Notes: generated from the sequence alone by a model not told the origin. A DNA stretch of 64,000 bases from a bacterium (GCA_030432695.1 JAUILN010000016.1:113178-177177); one strand, 5' to 3'; positions 3 to 45,220 are shown, counted from the stretch's first letter. Made by a program: numbers and translations.

Positions 3-1415
3 GCGCTCGCCTGGGTCGCGTGGCCGCGCGCGGAGGACTCACAGCGGAGCCCAGTGGTTCCCGCCAGCGGTCCGGACGCTCGATTCGCTGCCGGAACATC
101 CGATCCGAAACACGACGTCGGCCTGCGCACCGCGACCGGCGAACCCGCGATCCCCGAGCGCGGCGTGGTGGTCGCCGAACTCGCCACGGACTTCGTCCGC
201 GAGGGTCGCCTGGTCGGGGTAGTACCGGCGGCCCCGATCGATGCGCCGCTGGAGATCCGTTTCGACGGCCGGGTGGACGGAGTGCGCCGCGAGCACGAGG
301 CGAGGATCCCGGTGCAGCCCGACGGGCGGTTCCGGTTGGTGCTGCCGCCGTGGGCGAACGACTGCGAGCGCTTCGACCTACGGATCGACTTCCATGGACT
401 GTGGTATTCCGACCTGACGAAGCGCTTCGAGGGGGAGCTGCAGCGCGACGCCTCGGAGTTGCTGCTGGAGGTGCAGCCGATCGGGATCGTCACGGGGCGG
501 GTGGTGGACGGTGACGGCGAGCCGGTGGTGGCGGCGCGGATCGTGGCCATGGATCCCCGTGAGGCGGAGGATCCTGGCGAGATGACGACGCTATTCGGAC
601 AGACCAACAGCGGATCGGAAGGCGCCTTCCTCCTCAAGGTGCGATGCGAAGGCCCGACCATCCTCCTGGCGCTCCCGATGCAGGAAGCGTCGCTCAGTGG
701 CCTCCGCCTCCAGATGATGCGACCGGTGAACGAACAGGAGCTCGTCGCCGACGCGCCGGTGACGGACTGCAATGCGCATCGGGACGACCTGCTGCCGGCG
801 TATCGCGAGGCCGAGATCGTGTTCGGCAGGCAGACCGATTTGGCCCCGATCGCGCTCGACGTGCCGAGCCCGATCACCGGCCGCGTGGTCGATCCGAAGG
901 GTGACGGGATCCCCGGCCTCGGCGTCTGGTGGCTTCCCCAGGACGCACGGCGCTATGCCTACGTCGCCGGCCGCAACCTCGCTCTCTGGGACGACGACCG
1001 CGCGGGGTGGGCCTGGAGGGGGCTGTGCGGAGACGACGGGCGCTTCGGACTATGGGCCAATCCCGGCCGGCCGGGAGTCTGCCGGCCCTCGAAGATCGAC
1101 GGCGGCAACCTCCCCTGGCTCACTCCGGTCCCGGCCATCGCCCCGACCCATGTCGAGCTGCGACTCGAGCGAAGGGTGACCATCCGCCTGCTGCGCGACG
1201 GCGCACCCGTCGCGGACGTCCGACTCAAGCCTCACCGAACGGGAGGATTCGAGCCGATCCCGCTCGTCACGGACGAGTCCGGAGAACTGCAGCTGTGGCT
1301 CCCGACGGAGGGCGAAGCCCGGCTCCTTCTGTCCCGCGGCCCCGGCGACAAGCTCTGGATCGACGCCCGCGAAGCCGACGACGACGGCCTCCTCGTCATC
1401 GACCTCGACGACTGA
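3..1415 (+). CDS. Membrane-anchored carboxypeptidase-regulatory-like (transthyretin-fold) repeat protein, 5' end outside the window
   Basis: Frame is open from nt 3 (ALAWVAWP, end of a TM segment). Repeated GRVVDxxGxP(V/I) motifs. Ends ADDDGLLVIDLDD*. Confidence 0.75.
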   Translation, partial: ALAWVAWPRAEDSQRSPVVPASGPDARFAAGTSDPKHDVGLRTATGEPAIPERGVVVAELATDFVREGRLVGVVPAAPIDAPLEIRFDGRVDGVRREHEARIPVQPDGRFRLVLPPWANDCERFDLRIDFHGLWYSDLTKRFEGELQRDASELLLEVQPIGIVTGRVVDGDGEPVVAARIVAMDPREAEDPGEMTTLFGQTNSGSEGAFLLKVRCEGPTILLALPMQEASLSGLRLQMMRPVNEQELVADAPVTDCNAHRDDLLPAYREAEIVFGRQTDLAPIALDVPSPITGRVVDPKGDGIPGLGVWWLPQDARRYAYVAGRNLALWDDDRAGWAWRGLCGDDGRFGLWANPGRPGVCRPSKIDGGNLPWLTPVPAIAPTHVELRLERRVTIRLLRDGAPVADVRLKPHRTGGFEPIPLVTDESGELQLWLPTEGEARLLLSRGPGDKLWIDAREADDDGLLVIDLDD

Positions 1416-1908
1416 CCGCCTACCCAACCCGCCGCGGAGCACTCCGCCCCGCCGCCTTGCTCGCCTCCAGCAACTCCTTCAACTCCGCGACCACCTCCGG
1501 CCGCTCCGACCACAGATTCGTCGTCTCCCCCGGATCGACCTCCAGATCGTAGAGCTGCCCCGGCGCATCCGGATCGGTCTCCGGCAACGCATAGGGCAGC
1601 AGCCGCCCCCGGTCATTGTGATTCCGGCTTGACGTCCTCGTCGAGTGGCGGACCCATCGGCTCCTACTGGCTCACGCGTCGGCCCGGGCCCTCCTGGTCT
1701 ACGACGCGTAGCTCGAGCAGCGCGGCGTCGCGATGGAGGACGTGCTGACGAAGATCGTGGTCGTGAGTCGTGGATCGTGGGGCCAGCTGCGCTTCGGCTC
1801 GCGCGACCGAGCGGTCGACGGATGGTTCGCGAAGAGGCTGACGTGGCTCGTGATACGCCAGTCTCGCTGGGGATGGCGCGCGAGGTCCTAGAAAGCGCGG
1901 CGCACGAC
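1370..1908. repeat. Copy A of a duplicated block: LLVIDLDD* gene end + convergent sulfatase 3' tail + ~290-bp decayed ORF module
   Basis: Near-identical to 29715-30253. The part to ~1623 also matches 44960-45220, the 3' end of the intact sulfatase. Confidence 0.9.
1420..1616 (-). pseudogene. Orphan 3' tail (~65 codons) of the sulfatase gene
   Basis: Minus strand reads DRGRLLPYALPETDPDAPGQLYDLEVDPGETTNLWSERPEVVAELKELLEASKAAGRSAPRR, nearly identical to the C-terminus of 45018-46571. Confidence 0.9.
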
Positions 1909-1984
1909 AGCCTGCAGCTTGGGACGCCCGACTATGCCGCAGTCTGCTTGATCGCGGTGGCGGAAGGTGCGACCGGCAGCGCCC

Positions 1985-2539
1985 TTTCTTGAGGAATGCC
2001 TCCACGTCTCCCGGAGACATCGCGCTCTATGCGAACGCAACCATCTCCTCAACGTCCGGGTTCATGAAGCGCCCGGTCATACCGCACAGCGCATCGAGGG
2101 GGGCAACCCCTCCGGCGCCCTCATCCGACTCGTAGTAGCGCCGCTCGACTTCGGCGATGCCGAACGACGTGAGCCACTGCTTCCGGCTGTTGCCCGATAC
2201 CGCATCAGTTGGCCGTCGACCTCGATGGTCGGGGCTACAACGTCGGCGACCTCTACGACCACCACGAGAGCCTCGAGTGCTGCGGCCGCACTCGAGGCCC
2301 GGAGGTCCGATGACTGCTTCCGAAACGACTCTGGCGCCAGGCCGTCTTCTGCCGCGGAATCGACCATCTCGTCGAGTCATTGACGGAAATTGACCATCAA
2401 CTCGTCAAAGCGTTCAATGCGGAGGGCTGTGGAGAGCGGTGAGTTGCCGCACGCAAGCGCTGTGTCTGTTGTCACTTACCTGGTATGAGCGACTCCGCAG
2501 CCCAATCCCACTCTTCTGCCAGAAGAGAGATATGCACCC
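1985..2539 (-). mobile_element. ISKra4-family (UPF0236-type) IS remnant: left end plus frameshifted transposase N-terminus
   Basis: Minus strand KQWLTSFGIAEVERRYY...GVAPLDALCG, with a frameshift and an internal TAG. Terminal GGGTGCATATC at 2539 resembles ends of this family. Confidence 0.55.
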
Positions 2540-2689
2540 GTCACGCTTTCGGGAATTCAAATTCAAGGACCACTCATCCCCCAGGTCAGGGGAACCAAGA
2601 GTTCGCCGTCCGTCGCAACGGGGCGCCCGAAACTGCGCTGATGAAATGGCAGGCGCCATGATCGTGCTGCCTGCCGGGAAGGACGCGAC

Positions 2690-3271
2690 GTGACGAATCC
2701 AACGGACCAATTCCGAATCACCCTGTGGCTCCTGGCCTGCTCGCTGTTCTCGACGGGCTGCGACGAGATCGAGGCAACGGTGATCTTCCGGGGCGACGGC
2801 TTCGTTGCCGCCGTGCCGGCGGACTGGGAGCGGGCGGAGCCCGGTCCGATGCCGGGTCTCGGGCCTCTGATGCAGTTCGACTGCACGGCGTACTTTCGCG
2901 AGCCGTTCCGGTCCCAGGACGACATCTACACGGAGAGCTTCGCGTTCGGGACGATTCGCGGGCTAATCGTAGAGCAAATGAATCCGACTGATTTCGGTGA
3001 CTATGTGCACGCGGCCGCCGAGAGTTCTCGGGCACTGCTGACTTCGATGGGGGATGTCTCGGTCGACGGCCCGACGTGGGAAGACGGGTTCGGCTGGCCG
3101 GTTGCCCGTATCGACGTGCGGACGTTCGACGCCGACCGGAGTCAGAGCATGCGGATGCTCTACATCCTGCGGGAGGGAAGCGTGCTGTTCGCCGCCTACC
3201 ACGCCCAGCCCGATGAAGCCGATCGTCACTTCCCGCGTTGCAATCGTGTACTCGCAGACCTTCTGGACTGA
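2690..3271 (+). CDS. Hypothetical lipoprotein
   Basis: 193-aa ORF with coding-like composition and hydrophobic stretch followed by lipobox-like STG-C. Confidence 0.65.
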   Translation: MTNPTDQFRITLWLLACSLFSTGCDEIEATVIFRGDGFVAAVPADWERAEPGPMPGLGPLMQFDCTAYFREPFRSQDDIYTESFAFGTIRGLIVEQMNPTDFGDYVHAAAESSRALLTSMGDVSVDGPTWEDGFGWPVARIDVRTFDADRSQSMRMLYILREGSVLFAAYHAQPDEADRHFPRCNRVLADLLD

Positions 3272-3305
3272 ACCAGGCCGACCACCAACCAAGAGTCACC
3301 CGACC

Positions 3306-3788
3306 ATGCGATTCCTGTTTGCCCTGTTGCTGATCGCCGCCGCGCTGTGCGGCGGCTACTACGTTGCCTGGGAACGAGACACTGGCCCCGCGCGCAAGGT
3401 GGCGCGACTGATAGAGGAGACCGGCCCGCATTGCCTGGTCTGTGAGCGCACGGCAGCCGGCAGTGTGACCTACAGCATGGCTGCCGATCGACTCGGTCCG
3501 AACTCGCCGCAGGCACTGCGCGATCTCGACGCCCTGACGGCGAGTGACGAGCACTTCTGTCACCTTCATGCGCCCCCTGAGGAGCTCCAAGTGTTCATCA
3601 CTGCGAAGATCGATCGCTATTTCGTGCTCCTGACCAGCGCCGCGCTGTGCTTCGGAGTGATCGCGATCGGCTTCTGGGGTGCCATGGCACTCATGGCGGG
3701 AAAGGCCGCCGGGCTGGGAGCGGTGCCATTCGGCTTGCTGGTGGGCTGGTTCGCGACGTTCGTGTCGGACGGCGTGAACATGATGTGA
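3306..3788 (+). CDS. Hypothetical membrane protein
   Basis: MRFLFALLLIAAALC start, CxxC, two C-terminal hydrophobic helices. Confidence 0.65.
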   Translation: MRFLFALLLIAAALCGGYYVAWERDTGPARKVARLIEETGPHCLVCERTAAGSVTYSMAADRLGPNSPQALRDLDALTASDEHFCHLHAPPEELQVFITAKIDRYFVLLTSAALCFGVIAIGFWGAMALMAGKAAGLGAVPFGLLVGWFATFVSDGVNMM

Positions 3789-3849
3789 GCCCTTCACGAC
3801 GCACCGTACCACGGGACGCCTTCGTACTCCGCACACCCCACACCATCGC

Positions 3850-4923
3850 ATGGGACTCTACGACCGTGACTACATGCGCGCGGATCAGCCGCGGCTCCGC
3901 CCGCTCCCGGCTCCGCGAACGGCAAGTCCGTCGCGGACCTCGCACGGGACGGCCGGAAGCGATCACCTGGAGCCGTCGGACGCGATCCTGGGCGCCCTGC
4001 TTGCGCTGCAGGGTCTCGCGTTCGTGCTCCCGATCGCTCACTTCGCGCCGTTCGCGAGACGCCTGACGTGGTTGGAGGAGTTCGGAGTCACCGGCTTCGA
4101 AGTCTCCGCGCGACATCTGCTGTTGGTTGCGCCGGGACTCCTGCTGGTCGCTGGCCTGGTCGGCGCGATCGGTCGTGGTCGGGTCGCAGCGCTGCTGCTG
4201 ATCGGGATTGCGGCCGTGGGGTTGAATCTGGTCGTGGGGGCGACCGGGGACCCGTTGGCGATCGCGGATGGACTCTCGCTGGGTCACCTCGTTCCTGCCG
4301 GTACGGCGTCCGTGCTCTTGGCCGCTACGATGTCGAGCGCGCTGATCGCAACGGTGGCCGACAGGAACCTCGTTCTACGCGCTCCATTTCTGCTGCTCAC
4401 CGCAGCCGGGAGCGCGCTCTACGTCGCCTCACCGTTCTGGAACCCGCTGGACATGATCGACGCGTTCGAGCACGTGCGCGCGTTGGCTATGGATGTCCGC
4501 CTGACGCCAGACCACACGCTGGCGGTCGGCGGCGAGGGCACCGGACCGCGGTTCCTGCTGGACCGTTCCTGGTTCAGTTACCTGCAGTGGCTGGGTCGGG
4601 CGGGGGTCGTGTTCCTGGCGGGCTTCTGGTTCTTGGTGCAAGCCTGCGTGGCGGTGTGGGCCATTCTGCGGCTGTCCGCGCGCACGCGATTGGAAGCTGA
4701 CATGCCTCCGGTCGGCGTCGTGGTTGCAGCGTTTGTCATATTCAACCTCATGAGCCTGGTCTGCTTCGGTCTCTGGGCGTTCGCCGCCCCATTCGGCGGG
4801 GGTGAGGACGCGTTCTGGGCCGTGGCTTCGCGGATCGGCGTGATAGCGGGCGCACTGGCGGTGCTCCTGCTGCCGTCGGTCGGTGTCGGTCGGTTGCTGG
4901 TCCCCGCACGCCCGCTGAAGTGA
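3850..4923 (+). CDS. Polytopic membrane protein with N-terminal MGLYDRDYMR motif
   Basis: 357 aa with about 8-9 hydrophobic segments. The N-terminal decapeptide is typical of planctomycete rhomboid-type proteins, but no GxSG catalytic motif is seen. Confidence 0.7.
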   Translation: MGLYDRDYMRADQPRLRPLPAPRTASPSRTSHGTAGSDHLEPSDAILGALLALQGLAFVLPIAHFAPFARRLTWLEEFGVTGFEVSARHLLLVAPGLLLVAGLVGAIGRGRVAALLLIGIAAVGLNLVVGATGDPLAIADGLSLGHLVPAGTASVLLAATMSSALIATVADRNLVLRAPFLLLTAAGSALYVASPFWNPLDMIDAFEHVRALAMDVRLTPDHTLAVGGEGTGPRFLLDRSWFSYLQWLGRAGVVFLAGFWFLVQACVAVWAILRLSARTRLEADMPPVGVVVAAFVIFNLMSLVCFGLWAFAAPFGGGEDAFWAVASRIGVIAGALAVLLLPSVGVGRLLVPARPLK

Positions 4924-5084
4924 CTCACGGCGAGTGACGCCAGTGGCGTAGGATCCGCGGCTCCATTTTCCCGACCGTTGTTGCCGCGGGAGGTGCCGGC
5001 TCGATTCCTGGTAGGGTCGCGCGGCGGCCCCGGCATCCATATAGGTACTCCACGCGGAGTCCCAACGTCGTTCCTTGACAAGGA

Positions 5085-5187
5085 GCTATTGACCTTCACC
5101 TCGATCAAGCCGAGAGGGTCGCTGCACGGGTCGGTCTCGGCGGGCGTGGAGCGTAGCCGCCGTCGCCAGGAGTACAGGGTCGCTGCG
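5085..5187 (-). pseudogene. IS66-family TnpA (orfA)-like fragment cut by the ISCR-like end
   Basis: Minus strand AATLYSWRRRLR...LIEVKV matches the IS66 TnpA HTH pattern. Confidence 0.45.
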
Positions 5188-5468
5188 GCGCGTAGGAAAC
5201 ATGACGGGGGTTCTGGAGCCCAGCCACTTCAACCCGATCCACCCCGAACCCCACAGGCTCCCCCACCAGCGCGTCGCTCGGCCCCCTCTTCTGGCCTCAT
5301 CGCGGAACTTCGCCTGCACCCAGACGCGCCACAACCCGCGCCGACAGACCGGTGCTCCGCAGCGACCCCGCACCCGCACCGCTCAGCGCACTCAGATCAC
5401 TCCGCCCACAGGCCCGGAGCCTCCAGCGGCGGGCGTGCCGTTGACAGCGGCGGCAAGCTTGCTGGCAG
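5188..5468 (-). mobile_element. ISCR/IS91-like oriIS end, copy 1, with the last codons of the transposase
   Basis: GCGCGTAGGAAACATGACGGGGGTTCTGGAGCC terminus (minus: ...TTTCCTACGCGC), ~200 nt downstream of ...APGLWAE*. Homologous to 43002-43270. Confidence 0.85.
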
Positions 5469-5922: not shown

Positions 5923-6630
5923 ATGAACACAGTCTCCCGCTTCGCTCTCCCCGCCGCCGCCCTGCTGAGCCTCGCCGCGCCCGCATTCGCCCAGGATCTC
6001 GATGCCGAGATCGTCCGCAATCCGAACGACACCGTGACCTACACCGTCGACCTCGACGGCCCGCCACGGGGGATGTCGTTCCTGCTGACCAGCACGTATC
6101 CGACCTTCCCGTTCGTCCGGACGCCGTTCGGTCCGCTGTTCCTGGATCCCGCTGCGGCGATCGTGGTCGGCCAGACGCCGATCGATCCGCTCGGCCACGG
6201 TCGGTTGCAGTTCACCTTCCCGTTCCCGTTGGTGACCGGGACCCGCTTCTACTTCCAGTCGTTCAACATCGACGCGGCGAACCATTTGGCGCTGTCAGGC
6301 ACCTACGTGAGCTGCCTCACGCAGGACTTCGCGTTCAGCAGCAACCCGCTGCCGCCGAACTTCGGCCTGGTGGTCAAGGGCTACGCCGACAGCGACGACA
6401 TCAGCGCGCGCTACCGCCTGATCGGACAGCCGGGCACCCGCTACCGGATCACGGTCACCGATGCGCAGGGTAACCAGGTCGCGCAGCGCGAGGTGCAGGT
6501 GCCGGCGACCGGCAACGTGACGCACCTCGAGTTCGACCGCGCCGCGGGTCTGCAGCGGGGTCACCGCTGGCGGCTCGACGAGGTCTCGCGCGGCGGCGTG
6601 ACCGAGCGCGCCTCGGGATCGTTCGACTGA
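5923..6630 (+). CDS. Secreted hypothetical protein
   Basis: Signal peptide MNTVSRFALPAAALLSLAAPAFA-Q, beta-rich mature part, GC3-biased codons. Confidence 0.8.
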   Translation: MNTVSRFALPAAALLSLAAPAFAQDLDAEIVRNPNDTVTYTVDLDGPPRGMSFLLTSTYPTFPFVRTPFGPLFLDPAAAIVVGQTPIDPLGHGRLQFTFPFPLVTGTRFYFQSFNIDAANHLALSGTYVSCLTQDFAFSSNPLPPNFGLVVKGYADSDDISARYRLIGQPGTRYRITVTDAQGNQVAQREVQVPATGNVTHLEFDRAAGLQRGHRWRLDEVSRGGVTERASGSFD

Positions 6631-9600
6631 GCCGAGGCGAGACGTCGCTCTTCGAGCGCGTAGCCCGGACCCGCGTCCCAGACGTGCAGGTCGCCGGCAC
6701 CGGTGACCGCGGCGAGTCGGCGCCCGCTCGGTGACCACACGGCCTTCACCACGGCGTGGTCGAGGCGAAACGTCCCGGCGAGTTGACCGAGCACCGGGTC
6801 CCAGACCTTGATGGTCCGGTCCATGCTGCACGAGACCAGGCGTTGGCCACCGGCCTGCCAGTGCAGGCCGCCCACCTCCTGGTCGTGTCCGGCGAGTTCG
6901 AGCGGTTCCGCCTCGTCTGGCGACCACACCAGGATCCGGCCGTCCCGCTCGCTGACGGCGACCCGGCCGCTCGAGGCGTCGAGCGCGAAACTCTCCCGCC
7001 CGAATCGCGAGGTCGGCCCCGGGGCGGGCCAGCGGTGGAACTCGGTGCCGTCGTCGCCGCGGTGCAGCGAGATCCGATCGTGCCAGCGGACGGCGAGCGT
7101 CGATCCGTGCGCGTCCCAGGCAGTCGATCGGCAGGTGCCTTCGCCGCGGAACCAGAGCGTCGGTTCCGGCTCCTCCAGCCGCCACATCCACACCTCGCCG
7201 GCGAAGGTGAAGGCGACCCGGGCGGAGTCGTGGCTCCAGGTGGGAAACTGGTCGGCCAGGCGAAGGGCCGTGCTGGTTCTCCGGTCGCTGTCGTCGGTCT
7301 GGGACCAGATCGAAGCCCGTTGGTCGGAGTCGGATCCGGCGAACCACCGACCGTCGGGAGACCCCGAGAATCGGCCTGGTCCGAGGGCGGTCGACGTGGC
7401 GGTGCACTCTCCATCCGACACCCGCCAGGTCTGACGCAGCTCCTTGTGGACCAGCAGGAGATGGTCCTCGTCCCGCCAGTGCAGATCGGTGGAGTGCGGG
7501 GCCGTGAAACGGTAGGCGGGCCCCAACTGGGCTCGTGCCACCGGTCGATCGAGCGCGCGGATGTGGAGCGCGCGATTCCTGCCGCCGGAGAGGGCGAACC
7601 TGCCGTCGGCCGAGAACTCCGCCGCGTCGGCGTTACCGTCGTGGCGATCGACGATCCGGATCGCATGTCCTGCGGCTGCGCTCCAGATCCTCACCGTCCG
7701 GTCGTTCGAACTGCTCAGCAACTCGCGGTCGTCGGGCGACCAGCTCAACGCGGTCACCCAGTGCTGGTGGCTCTGCAGGTGCTGGCGCCGACGCCAGGTC
7801 TCCACGTCGAGGACCTGGATCGAGCCGTCGCCGTGACCGGTCGCCAGCGAACGCCCGTCGTGCGAGAACCGCAGCGCCTGGGTGACGGTGTCGGGGCTCG
7901 GGAGGTCGGCGTGCACCGACCAGTCGGCGGCGTCGAGCACCAGCACGTTGCCGCTGCGCTTGCTCAATGCCAGGAATCGACCGTCCGGCGAGAAGTCGAT
8001 CTGCATCGCGTCGCCGTGGATCGTGTGTTCGTCGGGAGATCGGTGGACGACTTCGCCGCTGCGCCAGTCGAAGACCAAGAGGCCCTTCAGGAAGGTCAGG
8101 ACGGCCAGGTGATCACCGTCGGGATGGAAGGCGATGTTGGACCCCCAGTCCGGGAGTTCGATCCGCGCCAGCACCTCGAGATCCTGCAGCCGCCAGACCG
8201 TCACGCCGCCCGACCCTGCGGCGGCGGCCAGCTTGCCGTCGCGACTCGGCACGACGGCGCGGTTCTTCGAGCCCGGAGCCTCGGGAAGCTCACGGTGCTG
8301 GAAGGTCTCGAGATCCAGTTCCCGGCAGAAGCCGTCGCCGCACACCAACACGTTCTGCGTCTCGGGAACCGCGGCGATGTGCATGATGAAACTGCGCATG
8401 CCGAGCACGTGTTCGGGGGAGTCCGCCAGACCGTGCATCGCGAACCATTCCCAGCCGCGGTGGTCGGTGGCGCCCGGTTCGGGGATCCAGTGCTCGAGTT
8501 GCCGCGCCATCGCGGCGATGCCGGTCTCGTCGTCGGCCAGGCTGGTCGCAGCCATTTGGGCGAAGTACAGGTTGCGGCGGGCCGCTTCGGCGGCGTCGTC
8601 GGCGCGGCCTCGTAGATCGCGCTCCGTCGCGGCGCGCAGGGCATTGTCGCGGGCGATCTGCAGCGCGGCGGCGAGGGCCGAGCCGAGTGCCACGAGCACG
8701 GTGAGTGCGACGGCGACCAGCGTGCGGTTGCGTCGCGAGAAGCGGCGGATGCGGGTCCAGCGGCTCGGGGGTCTCGCGATGATCGGTTCGTCGGCGAGGT
8801 AGCGACGAAGGTCGTCGGCCAGTGCCCGGGCGGTGAGGTAGCGGCGGTTGCGGTCCTTCTCGAGCGCGACCTGGCAGATGATCTCGAGGTCGCCGCGCAG
8901 GGCGCGGTCGTGAGTGCCGAGGCGGGCGGGATCCTCGTCGAGGATCGTCCGGATCGACTCGGTCAGCGAGCGGCCGGACAGCTCGAGCGGGAGGTGTCCG
9001 GTCAGCAGCTGGTAGAGCAGGACTCCGAGCGCGTAGACGTCGGCTCGGGCATCGAGATCGTTCGCGCCACGGAGCTGCTCCGGGCTCATGTAGGGCACCG
9101 TGCCGACGAAGTGGCCGGTGCGAGTCAGCGCGGCCTCGGTGTCCCCGTCGATCTGCGCGTCGCGCGCGATGCCGAAGTCCAGGATCTTCGGTTGGGCGTG
9201 GTGGCTGGAGTCGGTGACGACGAGGACGTTGCCCGGCTTCAGATCGCGGTGGATCACGCCGCGGTCGTGCGCGTGCTGGACCGCTTCGCAGAGGTCGATG
9301 CAGAGGTGGATCCGGGCGTGCAGCGAGGCGTTGGTCTCCCGGGCCCAGACCAGTGGATCGCGGCCGTCGACCAGCTCCATCGCGAACCAGGGCATCGATC
9401 CGACATCGGTCTCGACGAGGCCGGTCTCGTGGATCTGGGCGATGCCCGGATGCTGCAAGCGTGCCAGCAGTTCAGCCTCCCGCTCGAGGCGACCGGCCCG
9501 CTGCAGGTCGGGGTCGATGCCGTGCAGCAGCTTGAGTGCCACCGGGCGGTCGAGCCGTTCCTGGATCGCCCGGTAGACGATGCCCATCCCTCCCGAGCCG

Positions 9601-9863
9601 AGCACCGACTCGATCCGGTAGCCGGGTACCCGGAGCCGCCGCTCGTCGATCGTGATCCGGTCGGAGGATGGAGCGTCGTGAGAGGGCAGCGCGGACTCGC
9701 TGTCGCACCCGAGGAGGTCCAGGAGCTCGCGGTGCAGGTCCGCGTCGTCGGCGCATTGCCGTGCGGCGAACTCCGCGCGCTCGGCGGTCGGCAGATCGAG
9801 CCCCTCGAGGAGCAGTGCCTCGAGCCGGCTGCGTCGTTCCTTCTCCTCGCGCGGTGCGGACAT
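6561..9863 (-). CDS. Serine/threonine protein kinase with TM helix and WD40 repeats
   Basis: LGSGGMGIVY, VALK, HRDLKPGN, DFG, GTVPYMSPE; TM; WD40 motifs (HQHWVTALSWSPD...TVRIW, GHDQEV...TIKVWD). Confidence 0.95.
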   Translation of the reverse strand: MSAPREEKERRSRLEALLLEGLDLPTAERAEFAARQCADDADLHRELLDLLGCDSESALPSHDAPSSDRITIDERRLRVPGYRIESVLGSGGMGIVYRAIQERLDRPVALKLLHGIDPDLQRAGRLEREAELLARLQHPGIAQIHETGLVETDVGSMPWFAMELVDGRDPLVWARETNASLHARIHLCIDLCEAVQHAHDRGVIHRDLKPGNVLVVTDSSHHAQPKILDFGIARDAQIDGDTEAALTRTGHFVGTVPYMSPEQLRGANDLDARADVYALGVLLYQLLTGHLPLELSGRSLTESIRTILDEDPARLGTHDRALRGDLEIICQVALEKDRNRRYLTARALADDLRRYLADEPIIARPPSRWTRIRRFSRRNRTLVAVALTVLVALGSALAAALQIARDNALRAATERDLRGRADDAAEAARRNLYFAQMAATSLADDETGIAAMARQLEHWIPEPGATDHRGWEWFAMHGLADSPEHVLGMRSFIMHIAAVPETQNVLVCGDGFCRELDLETFQHRELPEAPGSKNRAVVPSRDGKLAAAAGSGGVTVWRLQDLEVLARIELPDWGSNIAFHPDGDHLAVLTFLKGLLVFDWRSGEVVHRSPDEHTIHGDAMQIDFSPDGRFLALSKRSGNVLVLDAADWSVHADLPSPDTVTQALRFSHDGRSLATGHGDGSIQVLDVETWRRRQHLQSHQHWVTALSWSPDDRELLSSSNDRTVRIWSAAAGHAIRIVDRHDGNADAAEFSADGRFALSGGRNRALHIRALDRPVARAQLGPAYRFTAPHSTDLHWRDEDHLLLVHKELRQTWRVSDGECTATSTALGPGRFSGSPDGRWFAGSDSDQRASIWSQTDDSDRRTSTALRLADQFPTWSHDSARVAFTFAGEVWMWRLEEPEPTLWFRGEGTCRSTAWDAHGSTLAVRWHDRISLHRGDDGTEFHRWPAPGPTSRFGRESFALDASSGRVAVSERDGRILVWSPDEAEPLELAGHDQEVGGLHWQAGGQRLVSCSMDRTIKVWDPVLGQLAGTFRLDHAVVKAVWSPSGRRLAAVTGAGDLHVWDAGPGYALEERRLASAQSNDPEARSVTPPRETSSSRQR

Positions 9864-9886
9864 CGGAGGCGCTATGATCGGGGGCA

Positions 9887-13665: not shown

Positions 13666-13682
13666 AGCGGCCGTCGATCCGC

Positions 13683-34685: not shown

Positions 34686-37118
34686 TCAGCCGCCGAAGCG
34701 CTTGCGTTCGGCGATCAGCGCCGCCTTCTCGCCGTCGTCCTCGATCACGCCCCTCTCGATCAGATCCAGCAGGAACTCGATCAGGACACCGCCCAGATGA
34801 CCGAGCCTGGCGTGCGCGGGGTCGGCGGCCCGGCCGCGGCGCGCCAGCGCGAGCCCGCGGCGCAGCGGCGCGCCCGCCTCTTCGTAGCGTTCGAGACGGT
34901 GCAGGTAGCCGCCCAGCAGCGCGACGTTCTCGACTGCGGCCTCGAGGAAGCGCATGTTGTCCGGATTGCCGGCCAGCAGCGCGTCGTAGCCGACGCGGGC
35001 TGCTTCGAATCGTTCGACCGCCCTTCCCAGTTGCTTCAGCTGAGCCGCGAACTTGCCCGAGAGGACGAGCACCTCGACCCGATTCGCGCGGTAGCCCTCC
35101 AACTCGCGCTCGGCCGGAGGCACCGCGTCGAGCACCAGAAGGGCCTTGGTGAGGAGTTCCTGTCCACCGATGACGTCACGGGCCTCGGCGGCCGCGATCG
35201 CGCGCGACTCGATGAGATTCGCCTGCTGCAGCAGATCCCCCGCACTCCCCCGCTGCGACACCAGCTCCCCGGCCAGCGCCATGGCGCGATCGAGGTGCGC
35301 CACGGACGCGACTCCCTGCTCCGACGCAGCCTGCCCCCGGTCGATGTCATAGGCGAGGCCGTGAGCCTCGACCAGGTCGTGCAGGCGATCGCCATCGGTG
35401 CCGTGATCGCTGAGCAGCGCCAGCGCCGCGTCGATCTCGCCTGCCGCGACATCCAACTGCCCGCGCACGGCAAACATGTGCGCGAGCCGCATCCGCGCGA
35501 CCCCGCTCTTCCAACCGAATCGCGGATCGTCGGGCCACTGTTCGGCCATTGCCGCCAACTCGTCGAGGCTGCCGCGCAACAGCGGCTCGACCTCGGCGGC
35601 GGCACCGCGCAGGCCCATCGCCTCGCTGCCGAGCGCGAGGTCGGTGATCGCCAGCCGGTAGCGCAGCTCGTGATCGTCGGCTCGCAGCGCGGCCAGGCGC
35701 TGGTAGAAACGCCGGGCGTCGCGGTAGAGCTCGAACATCAGCTCCGACGCGTTGGGCCGCCCGCGCAACCTGGATTCCGCGTTGCGAAAGAGCAGCTCGT
35801 CGACCGCGTCGACGGCAGCACCGTACATCGTCGTGGCCTCGGCGGCGTTGCGTTCGGCCCGAAGCATGGCGAGCACGATGCCGGTCGCGCCGACCACCGT
35901 CGTGATCGCGATCGCCGTGCCGACCGCGACGGCGACGCGGTGGCGGCGCACCGCCTTGCGCAGGCGATACGAACGCGATGGCGGCGCCGCCTCGACCTGA
36001 CCGCCGGCGAGGTGACGACGCAGGTCGTCGGCGAAGTCGCGCACCGACGGGTAGCGACGCTGCGGCTCCTTGGCGAGCGCGCATAGCGTGATCCAGTCGA
36101 GCTCGCCCCGCAGGCAGCGGCGCAGGGCGAGCGTATCGGCGCCGCGGGTCTCGGCCCGCAGTCCGGAGCCGGGATCCAGACTGACGCGCGAGCTCGGCGT
36201 CGGCGGCTCGGACTCGCGCAGGATCCGCTGCACGGTTGCCCAGGCGCCGCCGCGCAGGTGTCGGCTGTCGATCGGTAGCGCCCCAGTGATCAGCTCGTAG
36301 AACACGGCCCCCAGGGAGTAGACGTCGCTGCGGGCATCGACTGCCGCGGCAGAATCCGTCGCCTGCTCGGGGCTCATGTATTCGGGCGTGCCGACCACAT
36401 GGCCATCGAGGGTGTACGCGGTCCGCTCGAAGTCGGCGGCGCCGAGCAACTTCGCGAGTCCGAAGTCGATGACCTTGACCAGGGGTTCACCGTCCACCTC
36501 GGTGACGAGAATGTTCGACGGCTTGAGGTCACGGTGGATCACGCCCTTGAGGTGGGCGTGCTCGACCGCCGCCAGCACGTCGAGGAACAGCTCGGCGCGG
36601 GCCCTGACGTCGAGCTGCCGGCTGTCGCACCAAGCCGTGATCGGCTGCCCCTCGACGTACTCCATCGCGAAGAACGACCGGCCGTCCGGCGTCGCCCCGG
36701 CATCGAAGATCTGGGCGATGTGCGGGTGCTGCATCCGCGCCAGGGTCTCGTGCTCCAGTCGGAAGCGGGCGAGGATCTCATCGGTGTCCATGCCGCGCTT
36801 GACCAACTTGAGCGCCACGTGCCGCCTGACCAGGCCGGTCTGTTCGCACAGGTAGACGCTGCCCATGCCGCCGCTGCCGAGCTTGTGCTGGACCTCGTAC
36901 TGCCCGAACGACTCGAGCCCACCGTTGCGGTCGTCGTCGCGATCACCGTCGCGACTGCCGAGCAGGCCGAGGCCGCGCAGACGGTCCAGGCGGTCCTGCA
37001 CCTGATCGCGCAGCTCAGCGTGCTCCGCGCAGACCCGGGACACCGGATCGGCCTCGCCGCGGTCGAGGGCATCGACGCAGCGGGCCACCAGATCCTGGAC
37101 TTCGTCGCACTGGCTCAT
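34686..37118 (-). CDS. Serine/threonine protein kinase with TM helix and TPR-like C-terminus
   Basis: LGSGGMGSVY, HRDLKPSN, DFGLAK, GTPEYMSPE; TM; helical repeats. Confidence 0.95.
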   Translation of the reverse strand: MSQCDEVQDLVARCVDALDRGEADPVSRVCAEHAELRDQVQDRLDRLRGLGLLGSRDGDRDDDRNGGLESFGQYEVQHKLGSGGMGSVYLCEQTGLVRRHVALKLVKRGMDTDEILARFRLEHETLARMQHPHIAQIFDAGATPDGRSFFAMEYVEGQPITAWCDSRQLDVRARAELFLDVLAAVEHAHLKGVIHRDLKPSNILVTEVDGEPLVKVIDFGLAKLLGAADFERTAYTLDGHVVGTPEYMSPEQATDSAAAVDARSDVYSLGAVFYELITGALPIDSRHLRGGAWATVQRILRESEPPTPSSRVSLDPGSGLRAETRGADTLALRRCLRGELDWITLCALAKEPQRRYPSVRDFADDLRRHLAGGQVEAAPPSRSYRLRKAVRRHRVAVAVGTAIAITTVVGATGIVLAMLRAERNAAEATTMYGAAVDAVDELLFRNAESRLRGRPNASELMFELYRDARRFYQRLAALRADDHELRYRLAITDLALGSEAMGLRGAAAEVEPLLRGSLDELAAMAEQWPDDPRFGWKSGVARMRLAHMFAVRGQLDVAAGEIDAALALLSDHGTDGDRLHDLVEAHGLAYDIDRGQAASEQGVASVAHLDRAMALAGELVSQRGSAGDLLQQANLIESRAIAAAEARDVIGGQELLTKALLVLDAVPPAERELEGYRANRVEVLVLSGKFAAQLKQLGRAVERFEAARVGYDALLAGNPDNMRFLEAAVENVALLGGYLHRLERYEEAGAPLRRGLALARRGRAADPAHARLGHLGGVLIEFLLDLIERGVIEDDGEKAALIAERKRFGG

Positions 37119-37363
37119 GGATCGCCCGCCCCAACCTACCGCGCGGCCCCGGCTCGGGGTCGGGTACCGGTCGGCGTTCCGATCAGAGCGGCGGATCGGG
37201 CCCACGCGCCCGCAAAAAGTGGAGATTTCCGGCGCGGCCCACCTGAAGCGCGGGTCGCCGAGAAATGCGCAGACTCCGCGGGCACGCGCCGCCACGCGTC
37301 CGCTCTTCGTAGCGCGATCTCCGGCCCGCGCCGCGGCCGGCCCCAGTTTCCCCCGAGGTCCTG

Positions 37364-39547
37364 ATGCACTGCCTGTCCGCCGCCGCCTTGCTCTCCGCAA
37401 CCCTCTCCGCACAGGTGCCCGAGGCGCCCTCGCCCGCACCGCTCACCGATCGCCCCGAGGGTCGACTCTCCGCGGCATCGATCGACCTCAGCGCGCAGGT
37501 CACAGAGGCGGCGATCGGCCACTTCGACGGCGTCTGGTGGGGGTCGGGAGCGGACTACTCGGCGCGCTTCGCGGCCGACGGCCTGACCTTCAGTCCGAAC
37601 TTCGCCATGCCGCGCGGCGGCGCCGTGCGATTCGAGTTCGAGTCGGCGCGGCGCCTCGGGGGTGACGCCTGGACGGCGGATCCGGTCGAGCCGCGGGGCG
37701 ACGCCCTGGCCAGCATCGTCGACTACCCGCGGGGCGCCGTGCTCGAGCGTTACGAGCTGCGCGGCCACGACCTCGAGCAGAGCTTCGTGTTCGACCGCTT
37801 GCCGCCGGGCTGCGGCGACCTGGTTGTCACTCTGCACACCGAGACCACGCTGACCTGCTCGACCGAAGGCCGCGCCGACGCGGGGTTCGCGTACGACGCC
37901 CCGGGCTGCGGCTCGATCACCGTCGGCCGCGTCGTCGGCATCGACGCAAACGGTCGGCGCTCCGACGGCTGGATCCGGGTCGCGCCCGGGCAGCTCGAGC
38001 TCGGCCTGCCGCAGCGATTCGTCGACACGGCCGCGCTCCCACTGACGGTCGACCCAGTGATCGGCAGCACGTTCCTGGTCACGGCCGGGCAGAACCGCGC
38101 GCCCGACGTCGCGTACGACCTGACCAACGACATCTACCTGGTGGCCTGGGTGGCGACGGGTTCGCAGTCTTTCGCCAAGGCACGACGCGTCGGCTCGGAC
38201 GGGCAGCCGATCGGCGGCGTGCTGCTGCTCGGCCCCTGCAATGACTATTCACCCGTGCGGGTGGCGAACATCAACGACCGCGATTCGTTCGTTGCCGTGT
38301 ACAACGACAACGGCGTCCTGAAGGCGCGGCGCGTCCTGCCGAACGGCGTGACGAGCGTGACGCCGATCACGATCGCGAACGTCGCTTCCAACGCCGCGTT
38401 CGACGTCGGCGGCGACATCACGACCAGCGATAACGACGTAGTCGTCGTCTGGGCAGATACCAGCGGCCACATCCGCGCCGCGCAGATCGAGGACTCGCCG
38501 AGCCGAGGCTTCCACGTGTTCGGCGAGACGGTGATCTGCAGCGGCAACTGCAGCGGACCGGCCATCGCCGAGAGTGGCGGGAGCGCCGGCCGGTACCTGG
38601 TCGTGTGGAACCAGGCCCTCAGCAACAGCGACCGGGTGATCCGCGGCGTCGTGATGGACCGCAATCTGGCCGTGCTCGACTCACTGGTCCAGGTCACGCT
38701 CAGTGGCGGCGCGAGTGACTTCAATCCGGACGTCGATGGCGACGGCCTGCAATGGGTCGTCTCGTACCTCCGCCTTCTCAGCGGCGAGTACGACGTCATG
38801 TGCCGCTCGGTGCAGTTCCATCCAGCGAACCCCGCGGGCACCTTCATCGGCCCCGAGATGGTCATCGAGGCGGATCCGCGAGACCGAGAAGAGTCCCCGG
38901 CCGTCGCCTGGCTCGGCGGTTCCGCACTGGTCTCCTATGTCGACAACAACTCATCTCAGGGCGACGTCTACGGCAAGACCGTCGATCCGTTCGACTGCAC
39001 GATCTGCGAGACTCAGTTCACGCTGGAGGAGGGCCCCGAGAGAACCTACTACGTGAGTTGCGCGAGCACCCACAGCGGGGGCGCCGACGACGACCGTGCC
39101 CTGATCGTCTGGGAGAGCAAGGGCGCGAACAACGCCGGCGAGATCCGCGCGCGACGCTTCCTCGCGTCGGACGGCATCGCCACCGACCTCGGCGGCGGCT
39201 GCGGCAGCGGCGGCACGAACTACGCGACCTGCGCGCGGACCGGTCAGTCCGGGTTCCGATTCCAAGTGCGGGAGGGCCGCAGCGCGACCAGCCTGCTGTT
39301 CGTCGGACCCGAGCGCATCGACGCCGGCTGCGGTCCCTGCCGGCTGGTGCCCGACCCGGCGAGCAGCGCGGTGGTGCTGGTCTCGACCAGCGCGGCCGGT
39401 CGCGCGGAGGTCGCCGTGCCGATCCCCAACAGCACGCACGTGCGCGGCATCAAGCTCTACAGCCAGTGGCTCCTGCTCTCGTCCGCCGGAGCCTGCACGC
39501 GCCTGCCCGGCGACTTCTCCAACGCACTCGAGATCACCATCCAGTGA
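37364..39547 (+). CDS. Large secreted protein, paralogue 2 of 3
   Basis: Signal peptide ...TLSA-Q; same three-part architecture as 10580. Confidence 0.87.
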   Translation: MHCLSAAALLSATLSAQVPEAPSPAPLTDRPEGRLSAASIDLSAQVTEAAIGHFDGVWWGSGADYSARFAADGLTFSPNFAMPRGGAVRFEFESARRLGGDAWTADPVEPRGDALASIVDYPRGAVLERYELRGHDLEQSFVFDRLPPGCGDLVVTLHTETTLTCSTEGRADAGFAYDAPGCGSITVGRVVGIDANGRRSDGWIRVAPGQLELGLPQRFVDTAALPLTVDPVIGSTFLVTAGQNRAPDVAYDLTNDIYLVAWVATGSQSFAKARRVGSDGQPIGGVLLLGPCNDYSPVRVANINDRDSFVAVYNDNGVLKARRVLPNGVTSVTPITIANVASNAAFDVGGDITTSDNDVVVVWADTSGHIRAAQIEDSPSRGFHVFGETVICSGNCSGPAIAESGGSAGRYLVVWNQALSNSDRVIRGVVMDRNLAVLDSLVQVTLSGGASDFNPDVDGDGLQWVVSYLRLLSGEYDVMCRSVQFHPANPAGTFIGPEMVIEADPRDREESPAVAWLGGSALVSYVDNNSSQGDVYGKTVDPFDCTICETQFTLEEGPERTYYVSCASTHSGGADDDRALIVWESKGANNAGEIRARRFLASDGIATDLGGGCGSGGTNYATCARTGQSGFRFQVREGRSATSLLFVGPERIDAGCGPCRLVPDPASSAVVLVSTSAAGRAEVAVPIPNSTHVRGIKLYSQWLLLSSAGACTRLPGDFSNALEITIQ

Positions 39548-42835: not shown

Positions 42836-43001
42836 ATCCGAGCGACGATTCTGGGCACCGTTCGCCGGCCGCTCCTCTCTCGCCCGGCCGAGAGCCCGCC
42901 CAAGCCGATCTGCTCCGTCGAGAGCTCGAGGCCGGTGAGATACTCGCGCAGCACGGGATCGAATTCGAACGTGCGGCCTTCGGTATGCACTTCGACGAGT
43001 A

Positions 43002-44920
43002 GCGCGTAGGAAAAACAAAGGGGGACTCTGGAGCCCAGCCCCGGCAAGCAGCCCCTCCCGATCACCCACCACCGCGTCGTTCGGCCCCGCCTGCCGGCTC
43101 CATCGCGAACTTCTGCCCGACCCTCAACACCCCGCACCCCGCGCCGACAGACCGGTAGCCCGCAGCGACCCCTCACCGGCCCCGCTCAGTGCGCTCTGAT
43201 CACTCCGCCCACAGGCCCGGAGCCTCCGGCGGCGGACGCGCCGCTGACAGCGGCGGCAGCTCGGCCGGCAGCCCCAGGTGCGACAGCACTCGCGTGATCG
43301 TCCGCGGATCGGTGATAAAGGTCAGCAGGCGACGGCGGGTCTCGCACGCGCCCGCCCGTGCATGCTCGGGCGGGTCCCCGCTGTGGACAGATCAAGACGT
43401 CCACCCCAAAGCTCCTCCGCATCAGCTCCGCCCACGTCCAGCGGCGTCGCAAGTGCGGCTTCGTCTCCCGCTTCTCGCCCACCGCCCGGCAGGACCGCCT
43501 TTGCCTCGACCGGAACGCCGGCCGCTCACCATCGTCCGCGGACGGCACCGGCACCACCCGCTCGCGGTGCGACGCCGCGGGCGCGAACGCTCCGTGATAC
43601 GTCACCAGATTGCGATGCGGCCACGGCACCAACGCTGCCAGCCGCTCGATCAGGACCAGCGGCTCGAAGACCACCAGCTTCGTGCCATCCTTCCACGGCC
43701 GCTTGAACCGATACACCACCTTCCCGTCACGCGTCCATGTCAGCCGCGACTCGTCCAGCGCGGGCCGCAGCACATACCGACACAGCCGCTCCAACGCGTC
43801 CTCCCGGCCTTCCGCCACACGCGTCGCGGCGTGCAGTGAGAACCCGCGGTAGCGCGCCTGCAGCGTAGGACGCCCGAACTTGCCGGAGTCTCGGCGATCT
43901 TCCTGGGCGAGACGCGCCGCCTCATCCCCCACCCGGCGCACCGCGCAGCCGGCGCACTCGCCGAAGGCTATCCCGCCCTGCACAGCCGCCTGCTGGCAGG
44001 CATCCAACGCCGTCGGCTCGTGGTCCAGCAGCGGTCCCTGGCCCCACTCCACTGTCAGGCCACGCTCACGCAGCAGCGCCAGGGTGCGGCGGAAGATCCG
44101 GGTCGCCGCCCGCGCCAGGTCCGCGTCGCTCGGCGGTGGCAGCGGATGGAACACGGCGCGGCGGGCGCCGGACGGCACCGTGAACACACCATCCACGAAC
44201 AGTGCGTGGAAGTGCGGGTTCAGCCGCAGCGCCGAGTCGAAGCGCTGCACCGACACCACTGCGGCTGGTCGCGCGTCCTCGATGCAGTGCCTGCGCGCCT
44301 GGCGGCGCCGCAGGGCAAAGCACGAGCGCACGAAGATCCGGCGCAGTTCGCAGAGGAGGTCCGGATCGCGGGCAACAGGGAAGCGCAACTCGAAGGGCAG
44401 GCTCAGGACGAACTGGCGCACGGGCACGTCCGGGAACACCCGGTCCACCAGCCAGGCGGCGGTGTCGGCCATGCGCCGGCCGCCGCAGGAGGGGCAGAAG
44501 CCGCGGCGCTTGCACGAGAGGGCGACCAGCTCGTCGCGCCTGCAGCCGGGGCAGTAGACCCTCGCGAACCCTGCCGCGAGCTGACCGCAACGCAGGTAGT
44601 CCTCGAGCTCCCGGCGCACGAAGCCGGGCACCTGCGGCGGAGAAGGATCGCCACAGTCATCCAGGCGCCCGAAGAAGGTGGCCAGGTGACGCTGGAGCAC
44701 CTGATACAGAACTCCCCCCTCCGGTCGCCGGCGCTTGCGATGGGGACTCCAGGACGTTGTCACGCCCTGCTGTGCCCCGCGGTGAGCTGGCGGTCACGGG
44801 CGGCGTCGCTTTCCCGATCGAATCACCAGGTCGCGGGGACAGTGCCGCGACGGTCCCTGCCGGCCCAACCGAGAACCCCTGGCCGGTCAGTGATCGACCG
44901 CGCGAGTGAGAAACCCCGGA
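43002..44920 (-). mobile_element. Near-complete ISCR/IS91-like rolling-circle element (copy 5)
   Basis: oriIS-like terminus at 43002, transposase, and an upstream boundary near 44920 where homology to repeat copy B starts. No terminal inverted repeats or target duplication. Confidence 0.88.
43200..44763 (-). pseudogene. ISCR-type HUH transposase (single catalytic Tyr), frameshifted near the C-terminus by a 34-nt insertion
   Basis: Zn-binding CG...CPGC...SCKRRGFCPSC, HUH NPHFH, LCRYVLRP. Removing 43347-43380 restores CPQCETRRRLL...GLWAE* as in copy 3. Confidence 0.9.
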
Positions 44921-45220
44921 CTCGAGCGCCGCGAGCGAGCGAGCGAGGTTGGGAATCGACGTGCGCACGGCCGACGAAGACGGCCTGCTCGTCATCGACC
45001 TCGACGACTGACCGCACTCACCCGTCCCGCCGCGGCGCGCTCCGCCCGCTCGCCTTGCTCGCCTCCAACAGCGCCTTCAGCTCCGCGACCACCTCCGGCC
45101 GCTCCGACCACAGGTTCGTCGTCTCCCCCGGATCGACCTCCAGGTCGTAGAGCTGCCCCGGCGCGTCCGGATCGGTCTCGGGCAACGCATAGGGCAACAG
45201 CCGCCCGCGGTCATAGCGAT
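44921..45220. repeat. Copy C (putative source) of the LLVIDLDD*/sulfatase-tail junction
   Basis: GACGTGCGCACGGCCGACGAAGACGGCCTGCTCGTCATCGACCTCGACGACTGA followed by the intact sulfatase 3' end. Confidence 0.88.

Follow-up and report, generated by a model that had tools for sequence, protein, structure and literature searches.

The analysed stretch, hereafter the window, comprises 64,000 nucleotides of a bacterial genome (GCA_030432695.1 JAUILN010000016.1:113178-177177), and positions are counted from its first letter. It contains three copies of a junction at which the end of a plus-strand gene, translated as ...GLLVIDLDD and a stop, meets tail-to-tail the 3' end of a minus-strand sulfatase gene. 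BLAST and alignment placed these copies at 1359-1623 (copy A), 29674-29968 (copy B) and 44922-45221 (copy C), with the plus-strand stop codons ending at 1415, 29759 and 45011, respectively. The recurrence of the junction at two extra sites, reported in a preliminary description of this DNA, was thus confirmed with slight adjustment of the coordinates, and a genome-wide BLAST count yielded no fourth copy. The remaining matches (73-86% identity over 42-176 nt) all fell within paralogous sulfatase genes. The identity was 92.4% over 551 nt between A and B, 89.5% over 267 nt between A and C, and 89.3% over 300 nt between B and C. Among the three, only copy C retains an intact sulfatase (45018-46958, minus strand, 646 aa; Pfam Sulfatase, E = 4.8e-50), of which the triplicated part is the 3' 204 bp. 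Copy A has a 3' fragment of about 68 codons (1420-1623, minus strand), with 81% amino acid identity to the C-terminus of the intact protein, and copy B has a fragment (29765-29968, minus strand) with the identical breakpoint.

The plus-strand partners also differ in extent. Copy A follows a full-length gene, X (1-1415, plus strand), which is open over 718 codons from a start 741 bp to the left of the window and whose tail, from approximately 1356-1374, belongs to the triplicated segment. X encodes an ECF-sigma-like N-terminus and CarboxypepD_reg-like C-terminal repeats; a search with its C-terminal 100 aa gave only weak homologues, from 4 of the 90 other genomes in the family, and no homologue extended to the tail. 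At copy B only the last 123 codons and the stop of a paralogue, X', are present (29387-29759, plus strand), and at copy C approximately the last 28 codons and the stop (44922-45011, plus strand).

The three copies do not look like an assembly artefact, since they differ from each other by 7-11%, the read depth is even over B and C, and junctions are bridged by separately assembled contigs. The borders 29386/29387 (record 29238-29733) and 30254/30255 (record 30204-30569) were each bridged, with no differences, in all four sequencing runs from two studies, one of which is possibly the source of the assembly, so that the runs are not fully independent support. At the sulfatase border (29968/29969) the support comes from depth only. 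For the interval 1200-2100, which covers copy A, the fraction of sampled words present was 0.93 in two runs and 0.86 in two more. A scan of metagenome contigs with the 28-nt sequence across the sulfatase border gave no matches. In the synteny search, 20 of 31 genomes matched, including the source genome (G000), which is the sole member of its genus in the set and has no close relative there; the matches in the other genomes were short and 70-100% identical.

Three-way alignment revealed that A and B depart from the sulfatase at the same base, reading GATT followed by CCGGCTTGAC, whereas C continues as GATT followed by GCCCCCCGAC. After the breakpoint, A and B share a module of 286 bp (1624-1909 and 29969-30254), in which a TAG at 1709-1711 and 30054-30056, respectively, is in frame in the coding frame chosen by GC3. 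The common cut, the decayed module (first estimated at about 290 bp) and the shared TAG therefore stood as originally described. Ordering the copies by shared changes, as had been proposed, gave the tree ((A,B),C) when rooted with sulfatase outgroups, with seven derived substitutions shared by A and B versus one each for A with C and B with C. As the three copies are almost equidistant, this order of events rests on few sites. Together, the common breakpoint, the TAG and the seven derived substitutions support a single origin of the composite of X tail, sulfatase 3' fragment and module, which would then have been copied.

The module is not IS91/ISCR DNA but the final 286 bp of another transposon, one of the DDE type. 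It comprises approximately the last 85 codons of a reading frame designated ORF3, followed by the exact transposon terminus, ...CACGACA. In both relics (A, 1624-1909; B, 29969-30254; both plus strand) the sequence ends with ...GCGCACGACA, at 1909 and 30254, respectively, and in A the end of the terminal inverted repeat was recognised there. Searches of the genome with tblastx gave only compositional noise and Pfam searches of the module translations gave nothing, but the translated module matched ORF3 C-termini in 10 of 301 genomes of the order, the source genome included; the best matches had 48-49% identity over 87-88 aa (E = 1.3e-18 and 4.2e-15). The source transposon is approximately 3.9 kb long, carries genes for an rve DDE transposase and an AAA+ ATPase, and occurs as intact copies in related genomes. 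The products of the G139 copy are 531 aa (HTH+rve), 244 aa (AAA_22) and 155 aa (ORF3) long. G153 carries two copies, 99.3% identical over 3860 nt; both have TGTCG... inverted repeats and TG...CA ends, and their target duplications are 7 bp long (CTTGATC and CTGCCGC). The near-identity of this pair and the target duplications indicate that intact copies are mobile in related genomes. No families were assigned by Pfam or NCBIfam to ORF3, to the reading frames in the right flank of A (1910-5184) or to the small gene to the right of B.

The right border of the A-B similarity coincides with the last base of this transposon. Copies A and B and four of the five aligned loci in relatives end with ...C(A/G)CGACA and diverge straight afterwards, the fifth (L013) aligning poorly. 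At B, the terminus cuts a small gene (30257-30510, plus strand) after approximately codon 5; its intact paralogue lies on contig C11 (318386-318651), with 86% identity over C11 318398-318651. The right flanks of A and B showed no mutual similarity at the nucleotide or protein level. A 7-mer, CGACTGA, found both in the right flank of B and at the X' stop codon was considered a coincidence, since each of the two sequences carries it natively. Of the 38 A-B mismatches, 6 fall within the final 21 nt ahead of the transposon end, a cluster that could reflect two separate insertions, which would favour conversion between the loci, or equally a mutational cluster, and is suggestive at most. Apart from the two 286-bp relics, no second full transposon, left end or other fragment was detected in the source genome, nor any source of the corresponding transposase; the left ends have been deleted at both A and B.

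The element that adjoins copy C (copy 5, 43002-44834, minus strand; tnpA 43189-44763) is the only full-length IS91/ISCR copy in the genome. Its transposase scored above the Pfam cut-offs for Y2_Tnp (81.4 versus 20.9 bits) and Zn_Tnp_IS91 (58.2 versus 26.3 bits) and below the curated NCBIfam cut-offs for ISCR_clade_Ia (282 versus 925) and IS91 (transpos_IS91; 74.6 versus 125). Judged by this predicted HUH Y2 transposase with an N-terminal zinc-binding domain, copy 5 is a genuine member of the IS91 family. The ori-side terminus, (C)GCGTAGGA..., lies at 43002. Five copies begin at (C)GCGTAGGAAACATGACGGGGG with unrelated left flanks, which sets the terminus on the tnpA-downstream side; the border was placed by empty-site paralogues on contigs C11 and C37, and the terminus CGTAGGAA...CAAAGGGG is common to the relative G139. 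At the two sites with empty-site paralogues, neither GTTC nor CTTG was present beside the ori end, the flanks reading GCTG... and CCGC... on the tnpA strand. According to PMC13181058, IS91-type elements have a target tetranucleotide such as GTTC or CTTG directly beside oriIS; ISCR-like members may follow a different rule.

The other end of copy 5 had been set directly against the flank at 44921. It lies between 44834 and 44921, and an extension up to 44921 is possible, but the end is not fixed there. Contig C15 carries the one further ter-proximal fragment, whose match ends at 44834; beyond this point the alignment with G139 is no better than that with the non-homologous X' tail, and the other element copies of G139 stop before the ter end. 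By eye only, two palindromes could be made out on the ter side, at 44836-44857 and 44860-44885. The spacer at 44835-44921 (87 bp, no strand assigned), unique in the genome and missing from B, may thus belong to the element as its ter region or may be flanking DNA of foreign origin. To the left of B, the junction of the segment with a transposase fragment at 29386 was borne out: fragment 4a (29113-29386, minus strand), covering approximately residues 169-228 of tnpA and truncated on both sides, abuts X' at 29386/29387. This fragment and its left flank (28824-29093) are paralogous to contig C7 308638-309963. Element copies are mosaic, as seen for copy 4b, whose identity to copy 5 is 80.7% and then 92.9%. 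Dead element fragments have been duplicated along with their flanks, and further paralogous patches of 78-91% identity occur on contigs C11 and C37. This background is consistent with recombination. Overall, decayed mobile DNA forms a patchwork across the region.

It had been proposed that one-ended rolling-circle transposition read through terIS and moved the flank made up of the X' tail and sulfatase, the composite then being duplicated again. The second part is consistent with the tree, as a single composite appears to have formed and then been copied; the first is not supported as the copying mechanism. In its favour, the element is truly of the IS91 family, B and C lie in the same orientation on its tnpA-upstream (ter) side, and the divergence of the element fragments (88.5-89.3% identity) is similar to that of the flanks (89-92%); one-ended transposition is also documented at 1-14% for IS91 and IS1294 in PMC13181058. 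Against it, the ter-flank junction is not shared, since B has approximately 287 bp of X' coding sequence (29387-29673) absent from C, and up to 87 bp of C (44835-44921) have no counterpart in B. Neither oriIS nor the ter region nor the 87-bp spacer is present with the B fragment, whose arrangement is not one that a rolling circle from oriIS could produce, because the fragment and its ori-ward flank are together paralogous to the C7 locus. No IS91-family DNA lies to the left of A anywhere on contig C28; the closest is found on its right, where an ori-end fragment lies 3.3 kb away. The expectation that the copies always occupy the ter side accordingly holds for B and C and fails for A, an outcome that had been named as refuting the proposal, and three copies are too few for a genome-wide association with the element to be assessed. 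Finally, the junction between sulfatase and module lies inside the ORF3 of another transposon, with no GTTC or CTTG at the donor-side break, and the similarity of A and B stops at the last base of that transposon. We consider this explanation improbable as a whole; read-through past terIS probably did not produce the A/B composite.

The left border of the A-B similarity points elsewhere. It begins at colinear, in-frame positions of the paralogues X and X', which align without gaps; their amino acid identity is about 40% up to the shared tail, and their nucleotide identity changes from approximately 60% upstream to more than 90% from about 1356-1374. The reading frame of X and the shared stop codon are preserved across the border. 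On this sequence evidence the left border of the composite looks like a homologous exchange, with at most about 40-55 nt of good homology available for recombination.

A different possibility is that a transposase supplied in trans by a lost, intact DDE/AAA+ transposon acted on the relic right end and displaced or rearranged the DNA next to it. A second end-flank junction would result in either case, whether through transposition that used a cryptic left end or through a deletion or inversion mediated by the right end. The exact stop of A and B at the terminal CA in unrelated flanks, and the mobility of intact copies in relatives, favour such an event. The left border speaks against it: no left-end-like repeat or 7-bp duplication was found there at A or B, the colinear in-frame positions point to homology-driven exchange, and the source genome retains no transposase source. 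One candidate for a cryptic left end, CGTGCGC, was discarded, as it is present in B and C and not carried by A. We regard this route as rather unlikely. Its more specific form, in which the dead right end, used in trans by a lost intact copy, carried approximately 270 bp of host DNA (X' tail and sulfatase stub) to a second locus, is a long shot; if true, it would represent one-ended, end-bounded mobilisation of host DNA by a Mu/Tn7-like transposon in the same region as an ISCR-like rolling-circle burst.

Patches of 78-93% identity are numerous in the region and on other contigs, as would be expected if a larger block had simply been duplicated and altered by unrelated rearrangements, the coincidence with the terminus being due to chance. 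The border, however, matches the last base of the transposon within 0-1 nt, for which, with a border falling at random within a few hundred bases, we would put the chance at well under 1% (an estimate, not a computed value). Plain segmental duplication, taken together with an assembly artefact, against which the divergence and the bridging contigs at the two B junctions checked both argue, is very improbable.

The best reading, to which we give roughly even odds, is that one deletion junction arose and was later copied between two loci by recombination. A, B and C would be old paralogous remnants, approximately 7-11% diverged, of one tail-to-tail pair of X' and sulfatase, of which C retained the whole sulfatase. 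In the A/B lineage, the 3.9-kb transposon with its DDE transposase, ATPase and small ORF3 would have resided to the right of the sulfatase, inserted at locus B in the small gene. A single deletion would then have joined the sulfatase, at codon -68, to the middle of ORF3; its product, consisting of the X' tail, the sulfatase stub and the last 286 bp of the transposon with the terminal base, is what is present at both loci. The composite would subsequently have been copied between B and A, most likely by ectopic homologous recombination or gap repair, with the left border at colinear positions in the X and X' tails and the right border at the end of a transposon copy formerly present at both loci, so that similarity stops exactly at the terminus. 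The former copy at A is assumed from this exact border, and it counts against the recombination model that no second full transposon, left end or fragment is present in the source genome, as it does that X and X' are only about 60% identical in nucleotides to the left of the crossover. Nor does the model account for the position of B and C, each of which is found at the ter side of element DNA with a matching divergence (89%). The nearby IS91/ISCR elements would be contemporaneous decayed debris, and element DNA may have accompanied B and C when they were duplicated.

Compared with known systems, copy 5 resembles IS91, IS1294 and ISCR1 in its transposase architecture, and the IS91/ISCR group in having one conserved tnpA-downstream terminus in five copies and the B and C flanks on the tnpA-upstream side. 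It differs from IS91/ISCR elements in its sub-threshold NCBIfam scores and in the two ori ends without GTTC or CTTG, and the locus differs from one-ended transposition in a ter end bounded only to 44834-44921, its non-conserved ter-flank junction and the position of A beside no element. Heteromeric transposons combining a DDE transposase with an AAA+ ATPase include the Mu, Tn7/Tn5053, Tn552 and IS21 types. The 3.9-kb transposon is similar to these in its rve transposase with N-terminal HTH, AAA_22 ATPase, small third ORF, TG...CA termini, inverted repeats and short target duplication. It differs in the 7-bp length of that duplication and an extra upstream ORF, and in the source genome in persisting only as two 286-bp end relics with an identical breakpoint. 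Its proteins had no Pfam or NCBIfam match to TniB, TniQ, IstB or Mu-specific models, the best NCBIfam hits being IS481 and IS3 transposase models, under cut-off. Ectopic gene conversion or gap repair is matched by a patch of 536-551 nt at two loci, with the recipient frame kept, one border colinear and homologous, and the other where transposon homology ends; the short left homology and the present absence of the presumed full transposon at A are departures from it.

The overall pattern looks like ordinary mobile-element debris, and no new biological mechanism has been demonstrated. The transposon itself, with its rve transposase, AAA+ ATPase, two small ORFs and 7-bp duplications, is apparently unclassified. 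The 10-Mb genome is a graveyard of ISCR-like fragments with one full-length copy only. In this setting, a repeated flank beside an ISCR-like element resembles rolling-circle gene capture, although the decisive border here derives from a different transposon. The locus thus serves as a worked example: for one-ended capture to be claimed, the copies must have the ter-flank junction itself in common.

BLAST of the whole source genome with the three stretches as queries located the junction between a gene tail and a sulfatase 3' end at exactly three loci, all inside the window, which covers positions 113178-177177 of contig C28: copy A (1359-1623), copy B (29674-29968) and copy C (44922-45221). 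Each copy comprised a plus-strand gene end (...GLLVIDLDD*), a short spacer and a minus-strand sulfatase 3' end. The copies were 92.4% (A-B, 551 nt), 89.5% (A-C, 267 nt) and 89.3% (B-C, 300 nt) identical, and the other genomic matches (73-86%, 42-176 nt) lay within paralogous sulfatases. The sulfatase was intact in copy C only (45018-46958, minus strand; Pfam Sulfatase, E = 4.8e-50). In the alignment, A and B had a common breakpoint, GATT|CCGGCTTGAC, where C read GATT|GCCCCCCGAC, followed by a common 286-bp plus-strand module (A 1624-1909, B 29969-30254). The three junctions, the common breakpoint and the common module with its TAG, as given in the preliminary description, were confirmed by genome BLAST and three-way alignment. 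A and B differed at 38 of 536 nt, with six mismatches within the last 21 nt before the transposon terminus described below. Two tight clusters of six mismatches each were found, at 1889-1899 before this terminus and at 1416-1427 after the stop codon of the upstream gene; outside both, the mismatch rate was approximately 5% (26 in 513 nt). The cluster before the terminus could reflect two different original ends, or chance.

The triplication is not an assembly artefact, a concern raised previously: the copies had diverged by 7-11%, and separately assembled contigs from four of four runs in two sequencing studies, one of which may have supplied the assembly (10.03 Mb, 70% GC, 37 contigs, 88% completeness), spanned two junctions of B (29386|29387 and 30254|30255) with zero differences and even depth. 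For positions 1200-2100, a fraction of 0.93 of the sampled words was present in two runs and 0.86 in two more. Among the 252 columns common to all copies (A 1374-1623), 219 were identical, 13 C-unique, 10 A-unique, 7 B-unique, one different in all copies and two gapped. Five outgroups served to polarise the sulfatase part: two loci in relatives that resembled orthologues, plus three paralogues. A and B had seven derived states in common, compared with one each for A+C and B+C; private changes numbered four (C), three (A) and three (B), three states were derived in all copies and seven columns were ambiguous. Together with the common breakpoint and TAG, the derived states of A and B yielded the tree ((A,B),C), so that the copies could be ordered by shared changes, as proposed.

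The module showed plus-strand coding character (GC3) and contained a TAG in frame (1709-1711 in A, 30054-30056 in B). Its translation found matches in 10 of 301 genomes of the order, the source genome included, the best being in G139 (E = 1.3e-18, 48%) and G153 (E = 4.2e-15, 49%, two places). In these relatives, the matched part corresponded to the last ~85 residues of an ORF3 of ~155 aa, which closes a ~3.9-kb element (L015 6443-10290, L016 6435-10290 and L017 about 6360-10188). The two G153 copies were 99.3% identical over 3860 nt, with inverted repeats TGTCG(C/T)GCG..., TG...CA ends and 7-bp target duplications (CTTGATC and CTGCCGC). Inverted fragments of the transposon also lay nearby (L015 3553-3836 and 13602-13891). 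The G139 copy encoded a 243-aa ORF, a 531-aa HTH+rve transposase, a 244-aa AAA_22 ATPase and the Cys-rich ORF3 (155 aa). The transposase matched only IS481 and IS3 among NCBIfam models, both sub-threshold; with no curated family past the cut-off, the element may represent an undescribed transposon family. Both A and B terminated in ...GCGCACGACA, the terminal sequence of this transposon, and diverged from the following base onward. Homology also stopped at this terminus in four of the five aligned loci of relatives, the fifth aligning poorly. At B, the terminus split a small gene after about codon 5, whereas the paralogue on contig C11 was intact; the right junction of B is thus a genuine insertion junction. 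Since the sulfatase|module junction falls inside ORF3, it is a deletion junction, and the structure shows that it arose once. Searches for other traces of the transposon in the source genome matched A and B only (tblastn with five ORF translations), gave zero matches (blastn) or returned only three matches with six mismatches each (end motif).

The tract shared by A and B was bordered by the transposon terminus on the right and by colinear, in-frame positions of two paralogous genes, X and X', on the left. At A, X was full-length: its frame stayed open over 718 codons and encoded both a sigma-70-like N-terminus and CarboxypepD_reg-like repeats. At B, the junction 29386|29387 fused a transposase fragment with 123 codons of X' (29387-29759, plus strand), and C retained only ~28 codons. 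X and X' aligned colinearly and without gaps at ~40% protein and ~60% DNA identity, rising above 90% from roughly A 1356-1374 onward; the B-C similarity began ~30 nt further upstream (29674 / 44922). We infer that the A/B composite was copied from one locus to another, each with a transposon end, through gap repair or ectopic recombination, in which case the similarity would necessarily stop at the terminus. Such recombination would require a former transposon copy at A, none being visible today, and would have had only ~40-55 nt of good homology on the left.

The preliminary description had instead proposed that read-through past terIS of copy 5 (an IS91/ISCR-family element running from 43002 to somewhere between 44834 and 44921) captured the flank, the composite then being duplicated again. 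B and C do share an orientation and a position next to element DNA, on its tnpA-upstream side, with similar divergence of element fragments (88.5-89.3%) and flanks (89-92%). In the IS91 family, one-ended transposition has been well documented and makes up 1-14% of events; it leaves no target duplication, and the tetranucleotide target lies next to oriIS (PMC13181058). Yet B and C lacked the shared ter-flank junction that would be diagnostic, and B held ~287 bp of X' missing from C, so that B is not derivable from the present arrangement of C by read-through. The transposase fragment at B, together with the flank on its ori side (28824-29093), was paralogous to contig C7 (308638-309963, 81-87%) and thus not producible by a rolling circle starting at oriIS. 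Copy A followed X, with no element DNA to its left anywhere on the same contig (blastn, tblastn), contrary to the expected association with the ter side. Read-through was therefore largely unsupported; given the position, divergence and documented one-endedness, an older co-duplication of element and flank is possible for the B-C pair.

No full-length copy besides copy 5 was present in the genome: tblastn returned 27 segments, the rest of which were partial (43-89% identity), and blastn returned 23. All transposase-coding pieces in the window were on the minus strand. Its tnpA ORF (43189-44763, minus strand; Y2_Tnp and Zn_Tnp_IS91 domains) best matched the NCBIfam model ISCR_clade_Ia at 282 bits, below the 925-bit cut-off. 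The last ~60 transposase residues lacked a match in relatives, which makes the complete status of copy 5 uncertain. The tnpA-downstream terminus (C)GCGTAGGAAACATGACGGGGG was common to five copies with unrelated flanks and was placed by empty-site paralogues on contigs C11 and C37. At the other end, the match of the sole other ter-proximal fragment (contig C15) ended at 44834, and past this position an alignment to G139, the best relative at 68% amino-acid identity, was uninformative; up to 87 bp (44835-44921) thus separate element and X' tail in C. Copies 4b and 5 (32102-32983 and 43062-43871) were 80.7% identical over the first 259 nt and 92.9% over the next 553 nt, and the terminal part of 4b was closest to copy 1 (89.6%); this mosaic identity suggests recombination among element copies. 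Directly right of 4b (32031-32999) lay a divergent IS91-family transposase remnant (33039-33974, minus strand; 43-45% identical to copy 5; Y2_Tnp E = 1.6e-14). An IS630-type transposase (15893-17017; DDE_3 + HTH, 374 aa) directly left of fragment 3a (17164-17475) may have truncated it. At 13519-14105, an ori-end fragment of the ISCR-like element (13519-13664, 94.5% identical to 5185-5330) was fused with a truncated sigma-54 activator that retained the AAA lid and some of its ATPase domain.

The surrounding region is a patchwork. The right flank of B (30257-32032) was paralogous to contig C11 (318398-320516, 77-86%) in rearranged order, the segments after the small gene being S3-S2 in the window and S2-S3 on C11. 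The distal flank of A matched contig C37 at 91%; the right flank of A, of lower GC, contained a frameshifted pseudogene (2030-2404, minus strand), contigs C5 and C30 carried paralogues (48-50%) of its C-terminal ~50 amino acids, and 2321-2540 was 81% identical to contig C29 (146327-146547). A ~170-bp repeat (23357-23539) between a LysR-type gene (22379-23530, minus strand) and a divergent ORF (23546-24268) had 25 matching segments on 17 other contigs (80-97% identity) and looks like a MITE or REP-like element. An ancient duplication gave the window two paralogous, divergently transcribed gene pairs (6564-12889 and 34689-39544); each encodes a Ser/Thr kinase and, next to it, a protein of ~750-800 aa without a known family, with 40% identity between the kinases and 28% between their neighbours. 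Apart from one instructive twist, the locus amounts to ordinary debris of decayed mobile elements, and the module is reassigned to the terminus of a different transposon, not of the IS91/ISCR type.
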